A stretch of 64,000 nucleotides of DNA from Escherichia coli. GTDB lineage: Bacteria; Pseudomonadota; Gammaproteobacteria; Enterobacterales; Enterobacteriaceae. Below are positions 17,044 to 56,865 of the stretch, piece after piece. The notes under the pieces were generated by a model, which was given only the letters and a program-made list of their open reading frames with translations, made no database searches and was not told where the DNA came from. Position 1 is the first letter of the stretch, and every line of letters starts with the position of its first letter. The stretch lies in NCBI RefSeq assembly GCF_003018255.1, contig NZ_CP027440.1, one strand, 5' to 3'. Made by a program: the position numbers and the translations under genes.

Positions 17044-18339
<1,296 letters not shown>

Positions 18340-18344
18340 AACTG

Positions 18345-18376
18345 TCAGCCGGGTCATTATCGCCTGGCTGATTTTT
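18345..18376 (+). terminator. Possible terminator after yeaH
   Basis: tcagcc...ggctga stem followed by TTTTT; loop is long, so weak. Confidence 0.35.
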
Positions 18377-18485
18377 AGTTCACTGTAAATTATCTCATTT
18401 ATTACATACATTAGCTTACAATCGCTTTAAATATGACAGCATAACCTTTACACAATTTAGTTCCAGAAAACAATCATTCGGAAAA

Positions 18486-19961
18486 ATGATTCGGTCAACA
18501 CGTATTTCCCTGGGGTTATTCTTTAATTATTTTTTATCGTTAACGAAAATTGATCCTGGTCAAAACTATATATCTCTGCCATCAATAAAATCCAGCACTC
18601 ACATTGCTCTCCTTTTTATGGCTTCTATGGGTACACAAAAATTAAAAGCTCAAGGCTTTTTTATTTTCAGCTTATTGCTGACGTTAATTTTATTTTGCAT
18701 TACTACCTTATATAACGAAAACACGAATGTAAAACTCATCCCACAGATGAATTACCTGATGGTTGTTGTGGCTTTGTTTTTCCTTAACGCCGTCATTTTC
18801 CTTTTCATGTTAATGAAGTATTTCACTAACAAACAAATTTTACCAACACTCATTTTAAGCCTTGCATTTTTAAGTGGCCTTATCTATTTAGTTGAAACCA
18901 TTGTAATTATCCATAAACCAATCAACGGCAGTACACTGATCCAGACAAAGTCGAATGATGTTTCTATTTTCTATATTTTCCGCCAACTCAGTTTCATTTG
19001 TTTAACCTCGCTGGCGCTCTTTTGTTATGGGAAAGACAACATCCTTGACAACAATAAGAAGAAAACTGGCATTCTGTTGCTGGCGCTGATTCCTTTTTTA
19101 GTTTTTCCCCTTCTGGCACACAATCTGAGCAGTTATAACGCTGACTATTCTTTGTATGTCGTCGATTACTGTCCGGACAACCATACTGCGACCTGGGGAA
19201 TCAACTATACAAAAATATTGGTTTGTTTGTGGGCATTTTTACTGTTCTTTATTATCATGCGTACACGATTAGCCAGCGAACTATGGCCGTTAATAGCATT
19301 ATTATGTCTGGCATCGCTATGCTGCAACTTACTTCTACTGACTCTGGATGAGTATAATTACACCATCTGGTATATCAGTCGCGGGATTGAAGTTTCCAGT
19401 AAACTGTTTGTTGTGTCTTTTCTGATTTATAACATTTTTCAGGAACTGCAACTCTCCAGCAAACTGGCAGTTCATGATGTACTGACCAATATTTATAATC
19501 GGCGCTACTTTTTCAACAGCGTAGAGTCATTATTGTCGCGACCTGTTGTTAAGGACTTTTGTGTCATGCTGGTTGATATTAATCAGTTCAAACGCATCAA
19601 TGCCCAATGGGGACATCGTGTGGGTGATAAAGTGCTGGTATCAATTGTCGATATTATCCAGCAAAGCATCCGCCCCGATGATATTTTAGCGCGACTGGAG
19701 GGTGAGGTGTTTGGCTTGCTATTTACCGAACTCAATAGTGCCCAGGCAAAAATCATTGCGGAACGTATGCGTAAAAATGTCGAACTCCTGACCGGCTTTA
19801 GTAACAGATATGATGTTCCTGAGCAAATGACCATCAGTATTGGCACGGTTTTTTCAACGGGTGACACACGTAATATCTCGCTTGTCATGACGGAAGCAGA
19901 TCAAGCCTTACGCGAAGCGAAAAGCGAGGGGGGCAACAAAGTGATTATTCATCATATTTAA
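18486..19961 (+). CDS. yeaI: Membrane-anchored GGDEF-domain protein with degenerate active site (EGEVF)
   Basis: 491-aa ORF; AT-rich multi-TM N-terminal half; GGDEF fold with the signature replaced by EGEVF at 19698-19712. N-terminal start not independently verified. Confidence 0.85.
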   Translation: MIRSTRISLGLFFNYFLSLTKIDPGQNYISLPSIKSSTHIALLFMASMGTQKLKAQGFFIFSLLLTLILFCITTLYNENTNVKLIPQMNYLMVVVALFFLNAVIFLFMLMKYFTNKQILPTLILSLAFLSGLIYLVETIVIIHKPINGSTLIQTKSNDVSIFYIFRQLSFICLTSLALFCYGKDNILDNNKKKTGILLLALIPFLVFPLLAHNLSSYNADYSLYVVDYCPDNHTATWGINYTKILVCLWAFLLFFIIMRTRLASELWPLIALLCLASLCCNLLLLTLDEYNYTIWYISRGIEVSSKLFVVSFLIYNIFQELQLSSKLAVHDVLTNIYNRRYFFNSVESLLSRPVVKDFCVMLVDINQFKRINAQWGHRVGDKVLVSIVDIIQQSIRPDDILARLEGEVFGLLFTELNSAQAKIIAERMRKNVELLTGFSNRYDVPEQMTISIGTVFSTGDTRNISLVMTEADQALREAKSEGGNKVIIHHI

Positions 19962-39641: not shown

Positions 39642-41552
39642 TTACCTGGAGGATGGTATCGCAAGGAAACGAACCGCACGGGCAATGTCACGGGTGCGCG
39701 GCGCTGGCGGCAGACTGGCGAGAAACGTCGCGCCGTAAGGGCGCATCACCAGCCGATTGTCGCAAATCACCAGCACGCCGCGATCGTCAGCGTCGCGAAT
39801 CAGTCGCCCTACCCCCTGTTTGAGAGTAATGACCGCATCCGGCAGCTGTACTTCATCGAACGGGTCGCCACCGCGCAAACGGCAATCTTCCATGCGCGCT
39901 TTTAACAGTGGATCATCCGGCGAGGTAAACGGCAATTTGTCGATAATCACCAATGACAGCGTATCGCCACGCACGTCCACCCCTTCCCAGAAGCTGCTGG
40001 TTGCCACAAGAAGCGCGTTACCGGCGCTGACAAATTGCTGCAACAGTTGCCCTTTGCTGGTTTCCCCCTGCAACAAAACGGGAAGCGTCATGGTAGCGCG
40101 GAACTGCTCGGCCAGATCGCGCATCATGGCGTGCGAGGTACAAAGCATAAAACAACGACCGTTGTTAGCTTCGATGATCGGTCGCAACATTGCCGCCAGT
40201 TGCCGTGCGGAGCCCGGTTGATTGGTTTGCGGCAGGTTGCGCGGCACACAGAGTAACGCCTGGCGGCTGTAATCAAACGGGCTGGGTAACAGCAACGACT
40301 CTGCCTGTTCAATGCCAAGCCGCGAGGTAAAATGATGCAGATCGTCATTCACCGACAGCGTTGCCGAGGTAAAAATCCAGCTACCTGGCTTTTGCGCCAT
40401 TAACTCTTTGAATTTATCCGCCACGCTAAGCGGCGTCAGCGCGAGAGTGAAATGGCGCGAGGTACATTCGTACCAGTAGCTGTAACCCGGCTGATTAATC
40501 TCTTTTAGCCGTTTGAGTCGCGTGCGATACAACGTGGCGCGTTCAAATGCCGCATCCAGCAAGGCGGAACGCCCCAGCGAAAGTTTCGCCACGTCATAAC
40601 AAAGTTCCAGGGTGTCATCGAGCAGTAAAAACGCCCGCTGAATTTGCGGATTAGCTAACAGTTCGCGCAGGTTGCCACGATAACCAGGCTCACCGAGTTG
40701 CAGACGAAAATCCTGCGCGCTCTGGGCAAGGCGGTCGGCGCACTTTTGTAACTGCTGGGTGTCTTTTAATTCGGTGCGGTAGGCGATGGTGATGTCTTTT
40801 GCCAGGTCGAGCAGTTGTCGACTGGAGAGTGACTGACCAAAATACTGGCTGGCAATGTCAGGCAGTTGGTGGGCTTCGTCGAAGATCATCACGTCAGCTT
40901 CCGGGATCAGTTCGCCAAATCCACTCTCTTTCACCACCATATCCGCCAGAAAGAGATGATGGTTTACCACCACCACATCGGCGTCCATCGCTTTTTTGCG
41001 TGCTTTGACCACAAAGCAATCTTTATACATCGGGCAGTCGCTGCCAAGACAGTTGTCGTTGGTGCTGGTGACCAGCGGCCACGCCTGTGAATCTTCCGCC
41101 ACGCTGACGCAGGTGCTGATATCACCATCGACTGTTTGATTAGACCAGGAGCGCAGCAGGATCACATCGCTTAAGATTTGTACCGGCAGATCGCCCCCCG
41201 CCAGCGCCTGCTGTTCGAGACGCTCGAGGCAGAGGTAGTTTGAGCGCCCTTTCAGCAACGCCACATTGCCCGTGTATTTCAATGCCTTTGAGACTGTTGG
41301 CAAATCGCGGCTGTAGAGCTGATCCTGCAACGCTTTTGAGCCGGTCGAGATAATGACTTTCTTTTTCGCCCGCAGCGCAGGAGCCAGGTAAGCGTAGGTT
41401 TTGCCCGTACCGGTTCCTGCTTCCACCACCAGCGGCTGGCCTTTTTCTATCGCCTGGGTGACGGCTACCGCCATCTGTCGCTGTGGTTCTCGCGGCTTAA
41501 AGCCTGGTATCGCTTTCGCCAGCTGACCGTCTGGTGCAAAATCGTCCGTCAC
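39642..41552 (-). CDS. yoaA: DinG-family ATP-dependent DNA helicase YoaA
   Basis: 636-aa ORF with Walker A GTGKT, DEAH box and Fe-S cysteines. Confidence 0.92.
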   Translation of the reverse strand: MTDDFAPDGQLAKAIPGFKPREPQRQMAVAVTQAIEKGQPLVVEAGTGTGKTYAYLAPALRAKKKVIISTGSKALQDQLYSRDLPTVSKALKYTGNVALLKGRSNYLCLERLEQQALAGGDLPVQILSDVILLRSWSNQTVDGDISTCVSVAEDSQAWPLVTSTNDNCLGSDCPMYKDCFVVKARKKAMDADVVVVNHHLFLADMVVKESGFGELIPEADVMIFDEAHQLPDIASQYFGQSLSSRQLLDLAKDITIAYRTELKDTQQLQKCADRLAQSAQDFRLQLGEPGYRGNLRELLANPQIQRAFLLLDDTLELCYDVAKLSLGRSALLDAAFERATLYRTRLKRLKEINQPGYSYWYECTSRHFTLALTPLSVADKFKELMAQKPGSWIFTSATLSVNDDLHHFTSRLGIEQAESLLLPSPFDYSRQALLCVPRNLPQTNQPGSARQLAAMLRPIIEANNGRCFMLCTSHAMMRDLAEQFRATMTLPVLLQGETSKGQLLQQFVSAGNALLVATSSFWEGVDVRGDTLSLVIIDKLPFTSPDDPLLKARMEDCRLRGGDPFDEVQLPDAVITLKQGVGRLIRDADDRGVLVICDNRLVMRPYGATFLASLPPAPRTRDIARAVRFLAIPSSR

Positions 41553-41683
41553 ACTACCCCCTGTTGATTTGAACAGGGATTATGTCAGGATGAGGGCGCT
41601 TTCGCCAGTTGAAGTGATGACGGCGACCTCACATTGTGGCAGTCTTTGCAGCACGAAAATGGAAGTATAATGAGGACAAAATG

Positions 41684-42028
41684 ATGACTATCGTTCGTAT
41701 CGATGCTGAAGCCCGCTGGTCTGATGTGGTGATCCACAACAACACGCTCTACTACACTGGTGTACCGGAAAACCTCGACGCCGATGCTTTCGAGCAAACT
41801 GCCAACACGCTGGCGCAGATTGACGCCGTGCTGGAAAAACAGGGCAGCAATAAATCGAGCATTCTGGATGCCACCATTTTCCTGGCTGATAAAAACGACT
41901 TCGCGGCGATGAATAAAGCGTGGGATGCCTGGGTTGTCGCGGGTCATGCGCCGGTGCGCTGCACGGTACAAGCGGGTTTGATGAACCCGAAGTATAAAGT
42001 TGAAATTAAGATTGTGGCTGCGGTGTAA
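41684..42028 (+). CDS. yoaB: RidA/YjgF-family protein YoaB
   Basis: Start at MTIVRIDAEARW gives 114 aa. Confidence 0.85.
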   Translation: MTIVRIDAEARWSDVVIHNNTLYYTGVPENLDADAFEQTANTLAQIDAVLEKQGSNKSSILDATIFLADKNDFAAMNKAWDAWVVAGHAPVRCTVQAGLMNPKYKVEIKIVAAV

Positions 42029-42449
42029 GCTTTATCGAAGCAAAATAAGTCAGACGATAATTTATCGATAATACTGGTCGGTTTTACATAAATCGACCAG
42101 AGATTAAGATATTACTGTTGATGCTCCTGCTAATTCATTATTTATTTTTATATTTTCAATTTTAGCTATAAAGCTAACTATATAAATAAACATAACCATG
42201 CCGTTGTGTTCGCCCTTCGATTAGCATCTCTGGTTTTCTTTCTTAGCTGAACAATTTGGTTATAGCGTGAGAACTGACCGTCAATTTTCTCTCTCTTACT
42301 GGATAACACACCATGAGCTGCTACCTTTAAAACACCTGAATGTCAACAGGTTAACTCGTGCCATATCGTTATAATCCCTTTGATATTAGATGCAAATTAA
42401 GGTCATATATAGCCTTATCGATAACATGGTTAATTTTAAGGATAAGAAT

Positions 42450-42749
42450 ATGCCTGCTGTAATAGATAAAGCCCTGGATTTCATTGGTGCCATGGATGTA
42501 TCAGCACCAACACCAAGTTCGATGAATGAAAGCACGGCGAAGGGAATCTTTAAATATTTAAAAGAACTGGGAGTACCCGCGAGCGCAGCCGATATTACGG
42601 CGCGAGCTGACCAGGAAGGCTGGAACCCGGGGTTCACGGAAAAAATGGTTGGATGGGCAAAAAAAATGGAGTCTGGTGAACGCATTGTGATTAAAAATCC
42701 TGAATACTTTTCAACATATATGCAGGAAGAACTAAAAGCACTGGTCTAA
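42450..42749 (+). CDS. yoaC: DUF1889 protein YoaC
   Basis: Start at MPAVIDKALDF gives 99 aa. Confidence 0.8.
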   Translation: MPAVIDKALDFIGAMDVSAPTPSSMNESTAKGIFKYLKELGVPASAADITARADQEGWNPGFTEKMVGWAKKMESGERIVIKNPEYFSTYMQEELKALV

Positions 42750-42775
42750 GTTAAATTTATATCAGCATAAATGGG

Positions 42776-42816
42776 TCAGGACGCTTTTAATCACATATGA
42801 AAAGCGTCCTTTTTCT
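42776..42816. terminator. Bidirectional terminator between convergent yoaC and yoaH
   Basis: aggacgctttt-aatcacatatg-aaaagcgtcct followed by TTTTT. Confidence 0.65.
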
Positions 42817-42868
42817 CACAATCAAATAACTATCGGCTTCTATAACGAAAGCGATACGGATAAGTGTG

Positions 42869-43048
42869 TTACTCGTCTTCATCCTCAAAACGCGCCACGA
42901 TTCGCTCGCCGGAATGGTTGGCACGCAGCTCTTCTGCCACCAATGCGATTGCCTGGCCGCTGCTCATCCCTTGTGCCATCAGTTCCTGGATCCGCTCGAC
43001 GGCTTTTTGCTGCTGTTCATGGGTGAGTGAAGGTAAACCTGCAAACAT
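42869..43048 (-). CDS. yoaH: UPF0181 protein YoaH (59 aa)
   Basis: Minus-strand ATG..TAA encoding [59 protein letters not shown]. Confidence 0.75.
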
Positions 43049-43121
43049 TGTTAACTCCTGCTAAATTGTTGGCGCTAATTATTTCATGCTACCCGGCACA
43101 TAGCCAGTAGAGTCAGGACTG

Positions 43122-44483
43122 ATGAAGACGTTATCTCCCGCTGTGATTACTTTACCCTGGCGTCAGGACGCCGCTGAATTTTATTTCTCACGCTTAAGCC
43201 ACCTGCCGTGGGCGATGCTTTTACACTCCGGCTATGCCGATCATCCATATAGCCGCTTTGATATTGTGGTCGCCGAGCCGATTTGCACTTTAACCACTTT
43301 CGGTAAAGAAACCGTTGTTAGTGAAAACGAAAAACGCACAACGACCACTGATGACCCGCTACAAGTGCTCCAGCAGGTGCTGGATCGCGCAGACATTCGC
43401 CCAGCGCATAACGAAGATTTGCCATTTCAGGGCGGCGCGCTGGGGTTGTTTGGCTACGATCTGGGCCGCCGTTTTGAGTCACTGCCAGAAATTGCGCAGC
43501 AAGATATCGTTCTGCCGGATATGGCAGTGGGTATCTACGACTGGGCGCTGGTTGTTGACCACCAGCGTCAAACAGTTTCTTTGCTGAGTCATAATGATGT
43601 CAATGCCCGTCGGGCCTGGCTGGAAAGCCAGCAATTCTCCCCGCAGGAAGATTTCGCGCTCACTTCCGACTGGCAATCCAATATAACCCGCGAGCAGTAC
43701 GGCGAAAAATTTCGCCAGGTACAGGAATATCTGCACAGTGGTGATTGCTATCAGGTGAATCTCGCCCAGCGTTTTCATGCGACCTATTCTGGCGATGAAT
43801 GGCAGGCATTCCTTCAGCTTAATCAGGCCAACCGCGCGCCATTTAGCGCTTTTTTACGTCTTGAACAGGGTGCAATTTTAAGCCTTTCGCCAGAGCGGTT
43901 TATTCTTTGTGATAATAGTGAAATCCAGACCCGCCCGATTAAAGGCACGCTACCACGCCTGCCCGATCCTCAGGAAGATAGCAAACAAGCAGAAAAACTG
44001 GCGAACTCAGCGAAAGATCGTGCCGAAAATCTGATGATTGTCGATTTAATGCGTAATGATATCGGTCGTGTTGCCGTAGCAGGTTCGGTAAAAGTACCAG
44101 AGCTGTTCGTGGTGGAACCCTTCCCTGCCGTGCATCATCTGGTCAGCACCATAACGGCGCAACTACCAGAACAGTTACACGCCAGCGATCTGCTGCGCGC
44201 AGCTTTTCCTGGTGGCTCAATAACCGGGGCTCCGAAAGTACGGGCTATGGAAATTATCGACGAACTGGAACCGCAGCGACGTAATGCCTGGTGCGGCAGC
44301 ATTGGCTATTTGAGCTTTTGCGGCAACATGGACACCAGCATTACTATCCGCACACTGACTGCCATTAACGGACAAATTTACTGCTCTGCGGGCGGTGGAA
44401 TTGTCGCCGATAGCCAGGAAGAAGCGGAATATCAGGAAACTTTTGATAAAGTTAATAAGATATTACGCCAACTGGAGAAGTAA
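43122..44483 (+). CDS. pabB: Aminodeoxychorismate synthase component I
   Basis: 453-aa chorismate-utilising enzyme. Confidence 0.95.
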   Translation: MKTLSPAVITLPWRQDAAEFYFSRLSHLPWAMLLHSGYADHPYSRFDIVVAEPICTLTTFGKETVVSENEKRTTTTDDPLQVLQQVLDRADIRPAHNEDLPFQGGALGLFGYDLGRRFESLPEIAQQDIVLPDMAVGIYDWALVVDHQRQTVSLLSHNDVNARRAWLESQQFSPQEDFALTSDWQSNITREQYGEKFRQVQEYLHSGDCYQVNLAQRFHATYSGDEWQAFLQLNQANRAPFSAFLRLEQGAILSLSPERFILCDNSEIQTRPIKGTLPRLPDPQEDSKQAEKLANSAKDRAENLMIVDLMRNDIGRVAVAGSVKVPELFVVEPFPAVHHLVSTITAQLPEQLHASDLLRAAFPGGSITGAPKVRAMEIIDELEPQRRNAWCGSIGYLSFCGNMDTSITIRTLTAINGQIYCSAGGGIVADSQEEAEYQETFDKVNKILRQLEK

Positions 44484-53117: not shown

Positions 53118-53576
53118 ATGACAATCACGGACCTGGTACTGATTCTTTTCATCGCCGCACTCCTGGCCTTCGCGATCTACGATCAGTTCATCATGCCCCG
53201 CCGTAACGGCCCCACTCTGCTGGCAATTCCTTTGCTCCGGCGTGGTCGCATCGATAGCGTTATCTTCGTCGGATTGATTGTCATTCTTATCTATAACAAC
53301 GTCACGAATCATGGCGCGCTAATAACAACATGGTTATTAAGTGCACTGGCTCTGATGGGTTTTTATATATTCTGGATCCGCGTTCCGAAGATCATCTTTA
53401 AACAAAAAGGTTTTTTCTTCGCCAATGTCTGGATTGAATATAGCCGAATCAAAGCGATGAACTTGTCGGAAGATGGCGTGTTGGTGATGCAATTAGAACA
53501 GCGTCGGCTGTTAATCCGCGTTCGAAATATCGACGATCTGGAAAAAATTTATAAGCTTCTCGTTTCAACTCAATAA
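53118..53576 (+). CDS. yobD: UPF0266 membrane protein YobD
   Basis: 152-aa ORF. Confidence 0.88.
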
Positions 53577-53764
53577 GTTATCAATTTAGCCAAAGCTATG
53601 TTTAGTGTATTTTTAATAATCAGACATAGCTTAGGCTATATTACCCCTTCCCTTATTTGTTATTTATTTTAACGTTTCATTGATATATAAATCTAAATGA
53701 AAATCGTTATCAATAAAGCAATGAAATAATATATTCCAACAGTTGTTTTATATTCTCAAAATAT

Positions 53765-53900
53765 GTTAAGGTTGCGCCCTCATTTGGGGAGTAGCCGATT
53801 TCCAGATTCCGGAAATGTACGTGTCAACATACTCGTTGCAAAACGTGGCACGTACGGACTGAACACTTTCAGTCAGGCGAGACCATATGCACATCAATCG
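53765..53900 (+). ncRNA. yybP-ykoY-type manganese riboswitch in the mntP leader
   Basis: Contains UUUGGGGAGUAG and GGCGAGACCA-like segments typical of the yybP-ykoY motif within the 5' leader of mntP. Confidence 0.55.
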
Positions 53901-54004
53901 CTATGCCTGCATGAACGCGAAAACCATCGCGGTTTGTCGTTCATGTATGCATGTTTGCTGGGGGCGATGATGTGTTTTATGGATACCCCGGTCAGGACGT
54001 TGTC

Positions 54005-55908: not shown

Positions 55909-56534
55909 AAACAGAACTGTACCTCGTTTAACCCGAAATCTGTTATCACATACAACGTTAATTATGGCAAGCCATTTTTAAACATGTCTCGATCAGACGC
56001 ACAAATCTCGATACGTCTTCCACTTTTTTTGCACACTTATGCAACGGAATACGCGCCGATATATCATTGTGCTTAACCTTGCCAGTTCAGGCAGATACTT
56101 AAACTGACGTATTTTCTAACATAGTTCAATAAGTTCAGTTGTTCCAGGCCAGTGGGAGAAGTTATTACATAGTGCGTGCAATATCACATTTTCTGCTATG
56201 CAATGAATAAAAAGTTATATCACTTTTTCTCATAAAACAGTCAGTTAACGGCTATCGATCACCCCAAAGAGAAGTCAATCGCCAAAGGTATTGTAAATTT
56301 AAAATAAGAAAAATTGATGAATGCGCAAAAAAATCAAGAGAGAAACGTTTCGCTAATAAATAATACCACGCTTAATCACAAATCCGATGTAAACATCCTA
56401 ATAAATTAATGGGCTAAATATCTTTTTCTGATATCCCGTTACGCAAATAAATAATATGATAATTATTTGAAGTCAGACCAGAGTTTTAATTTGAAGCAGT
56501 TGCACCATGACAGTGCGTATAATCAGGATGAATT

Positions 56535-56562
56535 GAGTAACCCTTCAACGACGGGGTTACTC
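56535..56562 (-). terminator. Hairpin downstream of yebO
   Basis: gagtaaccc-ttcaacgac-ggggttactc, 16 nt past the yebO stop; no clear T-tract. Confidence 0.4.
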
Positions 56563-56577
56563 AAGATTGAGGAAGGA

Positions 56578-56865
56578 TTATCGTTCGGCGACCAGACGAA
56601 TAATATCTTCGTCTTCAACCGATTTTTGACTCTCAACGGTCTTTTTATCTGCTTTCTCAGGTTCGTTTGCTTCGCACAAACGACGTAACAGAGCATTTTG
56701 ACGTTTTTGCTGATCCAGCAACGCCTCAAGCAGTTCAATCTGTTCGTTAGTCCGTGAACTGGCACGATTGATAAAAAACCACAAGATAAGCCCGATAAAA
56801 AGAACCACCACCGATACAACCAAAGACGCAATGTTCATCACGCCTGAATTTACAACTTCGTTCAT
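56578..56865 (-). CDS. yebO: Membrane protein YebO
   Basis: 95-aa ORF with N-terminal TM helix and charged coiled C-terminus. Confidence 0.85.
   Translation of the reverse strand: MNEVVNSGVMNIASLVVSVVVLFIGLILWFFINRASSRTNEQIELLEALLDQQKRQNALLRRLCEANEPEKADKKTVESQKSVEDEDIIRLVAER

Follow-up and report, generated by a model that had tools for sequence, protein, structure and literature searches.

The AT-rich interval separating yoaB from yoaC in Escherichia coli raises the question of whether such DNA is silenced promoter DNA of the H-NS type, the place of an unannotated small RNA, plain spacer, or something else. In the window analysed here (the whole stretch of DNA, 64 kb), the interval 42029-42449 represents the 421-bp yoaB-yoaC spacer, located between yoaB (RidA family, 41684-42028) and yoaC (DUF1889, 99 aa; plus strand, 42450-42749, according to the ORF list and the annotation). 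The source sequence is 100% identical to E. coli strain 118UI over the query, and nothing is annotated between the two genes in 118UI or in K-12 MG1655. The K-12 counterpart of the gap is NC_000913.3 1893712-1894132, and since there are no indels between the two strains, K-12 coordinates are converted into those of the window by plain subtraction of 1851683.

The original prediction located the interval correctly and rightly called it AT-rich: its G+C content is 33.3% vs 49.7% for the whole window, and equally AT-rich 421-bp windows make up 0.66% of those in the 64 kb. Three more stretches of the window are as AT-rich (18224-19115, 53271-53962, and 55936-56717; minimum 421-bp G+C of 0.32). The statement that the gap harbours no ORF longer than a few codons needs correction because mechanical ORFs of 31-43 codons are present on both strands, while none of them is conserved in other Escherichia species.

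We suggest, with a probability of about 0.8, that the gap represents an ordinary composite regulatory spacer, which combines the end of the yoaB transcript, an upstream region bound by regulators, and an active yoaC promoter with its leader. The functional elements of the gap (the yoaB 3' end, the yoaC start site, and the binding of YhaJ and YeiE) are already contained in published genome-wide datasets.

The origin of the spacer is revealed by comparison across genera. The stop codons of yoaB and yoaH are 5, 0, and 11 bp apart in Salmonella, Klebsiella, and Enterobacter, respectively. A scan of one genome per bacterial species detected relatives of yoaC in 19 species, and among the yoaC-bearing species found, only in Escherichia is this gene flanked by yoaA, yoaB, yoaH, and pabB. 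The homologues of Buttiauxella, Citrobacter, and Lelliottia occupy unrelated contexts: in Buttiauxella yoaC adjoins fis and dusB, and in Citrobacter it is located between a diol-dehydratase reactivase-like gene and fimbrial genes. Since yoaB and yoaH abut in three other genera and yoaC resides elsewhere, the segment 42029-42868 (840 bp, 37.6% G+C), which lies between the stop codons of the convergent yoaB and yoaH and which we call the “yoaC islet”, is an insertion specific for the Escherichia lineage. Most likely, a small horizontally acquired islet entered Escherichia exactly between these stop codons. The leader alone would travel with yoaC, across genera just by its last ~85 nt, and the remaining gap would be lineage-specific; between genera, similarity can be traced no further than 25-85 nt upstream of yoaC.

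Like other small islets and single-gene insertions between convergent core genes, the yoaC islet combines a precise insertion between abutting stop codons with a low G+C content and with a promoter and a terminator of its own; it undergoes progressive gene decay, and the homologues in other genera occupy different loci. It differs from this class in the lack of an integrase, tRNA, direct repeats, or other mobility signature. No terminal repeats longer than 8 nt were found at the insertion ends in four species, and no DNA match to phages or genuine plasmids was obtained, the plasmid matches being mislabelled chromosomes; a mobile-element origin was rejected on these grounds.

Beyond yoaC, the islet includes a bidirectional terminator common to yoaC (plus strand) and yoaH (minus strand) at 42778-42815, composed of an 11-bp stem followed by T5. 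In the available part of the Term-seq data, it is flanked by the 3' ends K-12 1894498 (plus) and 1894457 (minus), corresponding to window positions 42815 and 42774, of which the minus-strand (yoaH) end is very abundant (score 94187). It is followed by the remnant of a pentapeptide-repeat gene (42816-42868, minus strand). An intact 150-aa pentapeptide-repeat ORF is present between the yoaC terminator and yoaH in lineages L004 and L005 (E. whittamii and Escherichia sp. E1V33; L004 4390-4842, minus strand), where it is located just downstream of yoaH on the same strand. This gene is internally deleted in L003 and L007, and only its two ends (~50 bp) are left in E. coli and E. albertii. The islet was formerly larger, and a stepwise decay series of this gene can be followed within it. 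In the pair of strains HNSQ2209 (L027) and XJ5.2 (L026), one carries IS1 just upstream of the yoaC start, and the other has IS1 plus a loss of most of yoaC.

The level of constraint varies along the gap. In the comparison of the source strain with lineages L004, L005, L006, and L007, between-species identity was 89-92% for the yoaB CDS, 85-89% for the yoaC CDS, and 88-91% for the 130 bp preceding the yoaC ATG (78% in L003). The hairpin sequence located after yoaB is 56-78% identical between Escherichia species with the pairing kept, and the middle segment (42101-42319) shows 41-59% identity with many indels. In L003 (Escherichia sp. MOD1-EC7003), whose genes are more similar to those of E. coli (98% and 95%), the identity of the middle segment is 14% due to a deletion, ~42101-42306 being absent.

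The same pattern was revealed within the species by a survey of ~5,400 complete E. coli genomes, in which we counted those having at least 99% identity to the source strain. This level is reached by 86% of genomes for the proximal 130 bp, by 78% for the last 219 bp of yoaB, and by 68% for the yoaB 3' UTR. For the middle segment, it is reached by 3.6% (192/5396), and 80% of genomes (4343/5396) fall within 90-95% identity. The source strain thus carries a minority haplotype of 42101-42319. Outside the gap, L007 (labelled E. coli SCPM-O-B-8794) has yoaA and yoaB separated by ~340 bp of additional AT-rich DNA (L007 2735-3204).

The yoaB-proximal end of the gap is occupied by the 76-nt yoaB 3' UTR (42029-42104, plus strand), as defined by published Term-seq and SMRT-Cappable-seq ends. 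The hairpin that had been noticed shortly after the yoaB stop codon is real and longer than originally described: it starts 45 nt after the stop and spans 42074-42100 (plus strand), its arms CTGGTCGGTTT and AAATCGACCAG forming 11 pairs, including one G-U, around a 5-nt loop with -15.5 kcal/mol. When compared with shuffles, the local fold gives z = -2.6. In a supplementary table of Adams et al. 2021 (PMC7815308, supplementary file 1), which covers three growth conditions, the available part contains a plus-strand Term-seq 3' end at K-12 1893787, equal to window position 42104; this end occurs twice and is labelled “orphan” only since it lies more than 50 nt from a stop codon. The available SMRT-Cappable-seq data of Yan et al. 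2018 (PMC6131387) contain a full-length transcript 1893335-1893785, which comprises yoaB alone and terminates at a “novel” site (window 42102). In the accessible parts of these two sources, two independent published methods thus map RNA 3' ends 2-4 nt past the stem.

Across six Escherichia lineages, 93% of the stem cells in the alignment are paired, and two pairs are changed on both sides; the compensatory signal is statistically modest, its score being reached by 25 of 500 shuffles, but it stands out from surroundings that are otherwise 40-55% identical. E. coli, L003, and L005 have G-U pairs, which would turn into A-C mismatches on the minus strand; since they are tolerated only on the plus strand, a role in plus-strand RNA is favoured. 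The more U-rich flank of the hairpin belongs to the minus strand; the available part of the Term-seq table contains no minus-strand 3' end at this locus between fadD and yoaC, and the hairpin was rejected as a minus-strand terminator on this basis.

In E. coli, AGAGAUUAAGAUAUU comes directly after the stem, a U-tract being absent on the plus strand; among the Escherichia lineages compared, only L004 has GUGUUUUAG after the stem. A terminator scan detected no site at the yoaB hairpin, which fails the classical definition of an intrinsic terminator because it lacks the plus-strand U-tract in E. coli. We suppose that the conserved hairpin fixes the 3' end of the monocistronic yoaB mRNA, whose position is known from the published mapping. 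This end may be formed either by termination at the hairpin, its U-tract having been lost, or by Rho-dependent termination further on, combined with exonuclease trimming back to the hairpin. The structure resembles the intrinsic terminators and the trimmed Rho-terminated ends of E. coli Term-seq in its stable G+C-containing stem-loop and in the RNA 3' ends located, according to the accessible data, 2-4 nt after the stem. In the manner of bidirectional terminators, A- and T-tracts prolong the palindrome at either side in some Escherichia species. The E. coli hairpin differs from the canonical intrinsic terminator in lacking a U-tract on the yoaB strand.

At the opposite end, the gap contains an active yoaC promoter. 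Cho et al. 2014 (PMC3923258) reported a transcription start at 1892041 in NC_000913.2, supported by 4268 reads and ascribed to sigma70 and sigma38, with yoaC alone as the transcription unit. The offset of +1976 from NC_000913.2 to NC_000913.3 brings the yoaB start of the same table from 1891360 to 1893336, vs 1893335 in SMRT-Cappable-seq; it was also checked by a start-site sequence in the Cho table spanning the yoaC terminator. After conversion, the yoaC start corresponds to 42334 (plus strand). The extended -10 element TGCTACCTT (42319-42327, plus strand) ends 7 nt before this start; it contains TGn and a hexamer with T-12, A-11, and T-7, and such a combination located 6-8 nt before a mapped start is characteristic of an extended -10. 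The hexamer was assigned from the start-site position, and no recognisable -35 is present. Six of the seven Escherichia sequences agree exactly in CTGCTACCTTTAAAA.

The activity of this promoter in K-12 is evident from the same dataset (PMC3923258), in which, after coordinate conversion, the ChIP-chip regions RNAP_898, SigD_776, and SigS_429 cover it. The start-site reads are 4268 for yoaC vs 5522 for yoaB, and the array log2 value of yoaC (b1810) is ~12 vs 6.5-7.7 for yoaA and yoaB. In O157, yoaC is subjected to only ~2-fold growth-phase regulation. The available part of the SMRT-Cappable-seq data lists no yoaC transcript, the yoaC start site being derived from one dataset and a converted coordinate, and the Cappable-seq supplement has no entries at this locus.

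Taken as assigned here, the yoaC promoter would be of the activator type, with an extended -10, no -35, and use by both sigma70 and sigma38. It is similar to the extended -10 (TGn) activator-assisted sigma70/sigma38 promoters in the spacing of TGCTACCTT, the lack of a -35, the use of both sigma factors, and the presence of LysR-type regulators upstream. It differs from them in that the mapped regulator binding is 170-245 bp upstream, vs the -65 and -35 positions usual for LysR-type proteins. Six of the seven Escherichia sequences share a perfect TATAAT inside the leader (42370-42375, plus strand), 36 nt past the published yoaC start; with neither a -35 nor a start site reported for it, this hexamer may represent a secondary promoter. 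The combination of this TATAAT as the yoaC -10 with an ACCTG-N8-CAGGT dyad as a class II activator site was rejected because the start at 42334 puts both of them into the leader.

Transcription from 42334 would give a 116-nt leader carrying the ribosome-binding site (42334-42449, plus strand; delimited by the published start site and the ATG, and examined by comparison). The Shine-Dalgarno sequence AAGGA of yoaC is located at 42438-42442. Across Escherichia species the leader is 88-91% identical, like coding DNA. Its last ~85 nt can be aligned between four genera, with hardly any variation in the 25 nt preceding the ATG; the sequence GGTTAATTTTAAGGATAAGA within the leader is invariant. The YoaC protein is only 68-76% identical across the four genera.

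This conservation is not accompanied by signs of RNA structure. The leader gave z = 0.05 and -0.17 against shuffles and a cross-genus consensus fold of -1.2 kcal/mol, and no covariation was revealed, the pairs being invariant rather than covarying. A structured leader, such as a riboswitch or a thermosensor, was rejected as having neither thermodynamic nor covariation support.

Two further reading frames are seen in the leader. A 34-codon ORF (42358-42462, plus strand), preceded by AGG at a distance of 7 nt, begins with GTG here and with ATG in other Escherichia; it runs over the yoaC start codon in a different frame. Between E. coli and L004, every difference in it is non-synonymous, and E. 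albertii and L003 show a change of frame; because of these non-synonymous changes and frame shifts it is not a conserved peptide, and it might be a translated upstream ORF. In addition, an in-frame ATG is located 8 codons upstream of the annotated yoaC start (MVNFKDKN-, 42426-42449, plus strand) in many genera; it is absent or blocked by a stop in others, for example, in Buttiauxella gaviniae, yet the region is still almost invariant across genera.

Between the yoaB 3' UTR and the yoaC promoter lies a fast-evolving AT-rich region (42105-42318), distinguished by its low identity, indels, and deletion in one species. Connolly et al. 2019 (PMC6765310) reported ChIP-seq peaks of the LysR-type regulator YhaJ at yoaC in EHEC (p of 8e-26 and 2e-99) and in UPEC, together with the motif TTATAGATAAAATTGA. 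Via the CFT073 coordinates, the UPEC peak centres correspond to window positions 42090 and 42108, on the yoaB hairpin, and the EHEC and UPEC peaks together map to about 42086-42108, the peak centre being ~230-245 bp upstream of the yoaC start. A candidate YhaJ box fitting the authors' motif is located at 42156-42171 (minus strand); K-12 has TTATAGATAAAATTGA, and the source strain differs from it by one base. This box is an imperfect dyad, lies 66 bp beyond the peak centre, and is ~170 bp upstream of the yoaC start. The gap contains no exact copy of the published YhaJ box TCA-N7-TGA (T-N11-A), and the authors' best motif, TAG-N7-TGA, is the one at about -170; a near match, TTA-N7-TGA, overlaps the yoaC start (42327-42339). 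For the second LysR-type protein, YeiE, Gao et al. 2018 (PMC6237786) described ChIP-exo binding upstream of RNAP at yoaC and called it activating, with no coordinates in the text.

According to the published ChIP data, the ~210 bp of AT-rich and almost unconstrained DNA are bound in vivo by YhaJ, and YeiE is reported to bind upstream of the yoaC promoter; the exact sites and the mode of action are proposed here. Members of the LysR family usually bind at -65 and -35, so that the binding mapped so far, at 170-245 bp before the yoaC start, is unusual. Resemblances to Fur and FadR sites in the gap were rejected on their spacing, as judged by eye. A repeated palindrome TTATCGATAA (at 42062 and 42415) is E. 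coli-specific and was likewise rejected as a signal, since 27% of shuffles repeat a 10-mer and 18% have two palindromic 10-mers.

The regulator-bound AT-rich DNA may also be considered from the standpoint of xenogeneic silencing, as was proposed originally. H-NS would nucleate on the AT-rich insert, for example at TCGATAAATT, and spread over the yoaC promoter so that yoaC would be off unless counter-silenced. The sequence TCGATAAATT is the published H-NS high-affinity nucleation motif, as cited in PMC7145609, and its exact match in the gap (42059-42068, minus strand; a candidate site) is the only exact copy in the 64-kb window. It occurs in 103 of 20000 composition-matched shuffles of the gap (a post-hoc test), which makes it unlikely by chance, and three of the six Escherichia lineages compared have it in exact form. 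Judging from this motif, the AT-rich composition, and the foreign origin, H-NS binding to the gap is plausible. Binding of LysR-type proteins far upstream also suits anti-silencing better than classical activation.

However, silencing as such is at odds with the strong yoaC start signal, the RNAP and sigma occupancy, and the high array values in wild-type K-12, as well as with the mere ~2-fold growth-phase regulation in O157, and the searchable literature provides no H-NS-yoaC link. The gap is similar to H-NS-bound acquired AT-rich DNA (for example, the proU regulatory sites) in its composition, acquired origin, and exact TCGATAAATT, and differs in its short tract (~420 bp) and in the good expression of yoaC in the wild type. 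The original prediction, therefore, holds for the H-NS-preferred composition of acquired DNA and does not hold for “silenced”, because yoaC is well expressed, and we consider H-NS silencing of yoaC rather unlikely.

A combined scheme, which we regard as quite unlikely, is as follows. The AT-rich DNA of the islet would serve as a platform for H-NS nucleation and spreading from the exact TCGATAAATT adjacent to the yoaB terminator, YhaJ and YeiE, bound 170-245 bp before the yoaC start, would act as long-range counter-silencers or boundary elements and not as classical -65/-35 activators, and the 25-nt ribosome-binding region of the leader would be a portable post-transcriptional control site moving with the gene. 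The last suggestion is based on the near invariance of this region across the four genera, in which the protein itself is far less conserved.

As an alternative to the composite regulatory spacer that we prefer, the AT-rich stretch could have a genic past. It could be a decayed remnant of a further islet gene, just as the yoaC-yoaH spacer retains the remnant of the pentapeptide-repeat gene. Decay is demonstrable elsewhere in the islet, and short ORFs of related species overlap the same region. However, in 14 other loci no similarity was found to the stop-free segments within 2.5 kb of yoaC, beyond the common leader, for which reason a pseudogene remnant in the gap was rejected. Moreover, the searches against phages and plasmids gave no genuine match, no lineage keeps a longer ORF, and the 33% G+C makes this DNA visibly more AT-rich than the intact pentapeptide-repeat gene. 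We conclude that such a remnant is very unlikely.

The suggestion that the gap is plain spacer devoid of any function is highly improbable. It would agree with the poor conservation of the middle ~210 bp, which tolerate a ~200-bp deletion, and with the IS1 insertions that occur in the spacer and in yoaC. Nevertheless, RNA ends have been mapped at both extremities of the gap, which are conserved as well, and the YhaJ ChIP peaks are located inside it; for 42029-42104 and 42319-42449, the plain-spacer reading is already refuted. When transcription and conservation are used to distinguish spacer DNA, as proposed originally, the middle ~210 bp look like spacer, whereas both ends are conserved and transcribed.

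The least probable of all is an unannotated small RNA or small protein encoded by the gap. The former might be a ~90-nt RNA produced from a promoter-like site at 42186-42159 (minus strand) and ended by the minus-strand U-rich tract after the hairpin; the latter might be represented by a 31-codon hydrophobic minus-strand ORF (42104-42199) or by the 33-51-codon plus-strand ORFs of three other species. Against the small RNA, which had been put forward as a possibility, stands a series of data. The proposed Rfam search, now performed, revealed nothing above chance level at E up to 10: a permissive Rfam 15 scan of 41000-43500 gave three chance-level hits (E 0.6-9, far below the gathering scores), only one of which overlaps the gap. 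The yoaB 3' end is the sole RNA end mapped in the gap in the available part of the published Term-seq table, which shows no minus-strand end at the hairpin, and the accessible SMRT-Cappable-seq entries list no transcript starting there. The Hfq RIL-seq feature table has no intergenic feature here and contains yoaB and yoaC as CDS only. Promoter-like sites are no commoner than in shuffles, and the segment, which one species has lost by deletion, changes at a roughly neutral rate. The minus-strand 31-codon and plus-strand 33-51-codon ORFs were rejected as genes since they are not conserved: they vary in stops and frames, and most of the changes are non-synonymous as read from the alignment.

For the composite regulatory spacer that we favour, the importance of these results barely exceeds that of annotation; the published elements of the gap are omitted from the RefSeq display. 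The unusually distant regulator binding might repay a targeted experiment. With respect to the evolution of Escherichia, yoaC with its leader, its terminator, and the decaying pentapeptide-repeat gene is a neat illustration of acquired DNA having a terminator and a promoter of its own, whether brought along or evolved.
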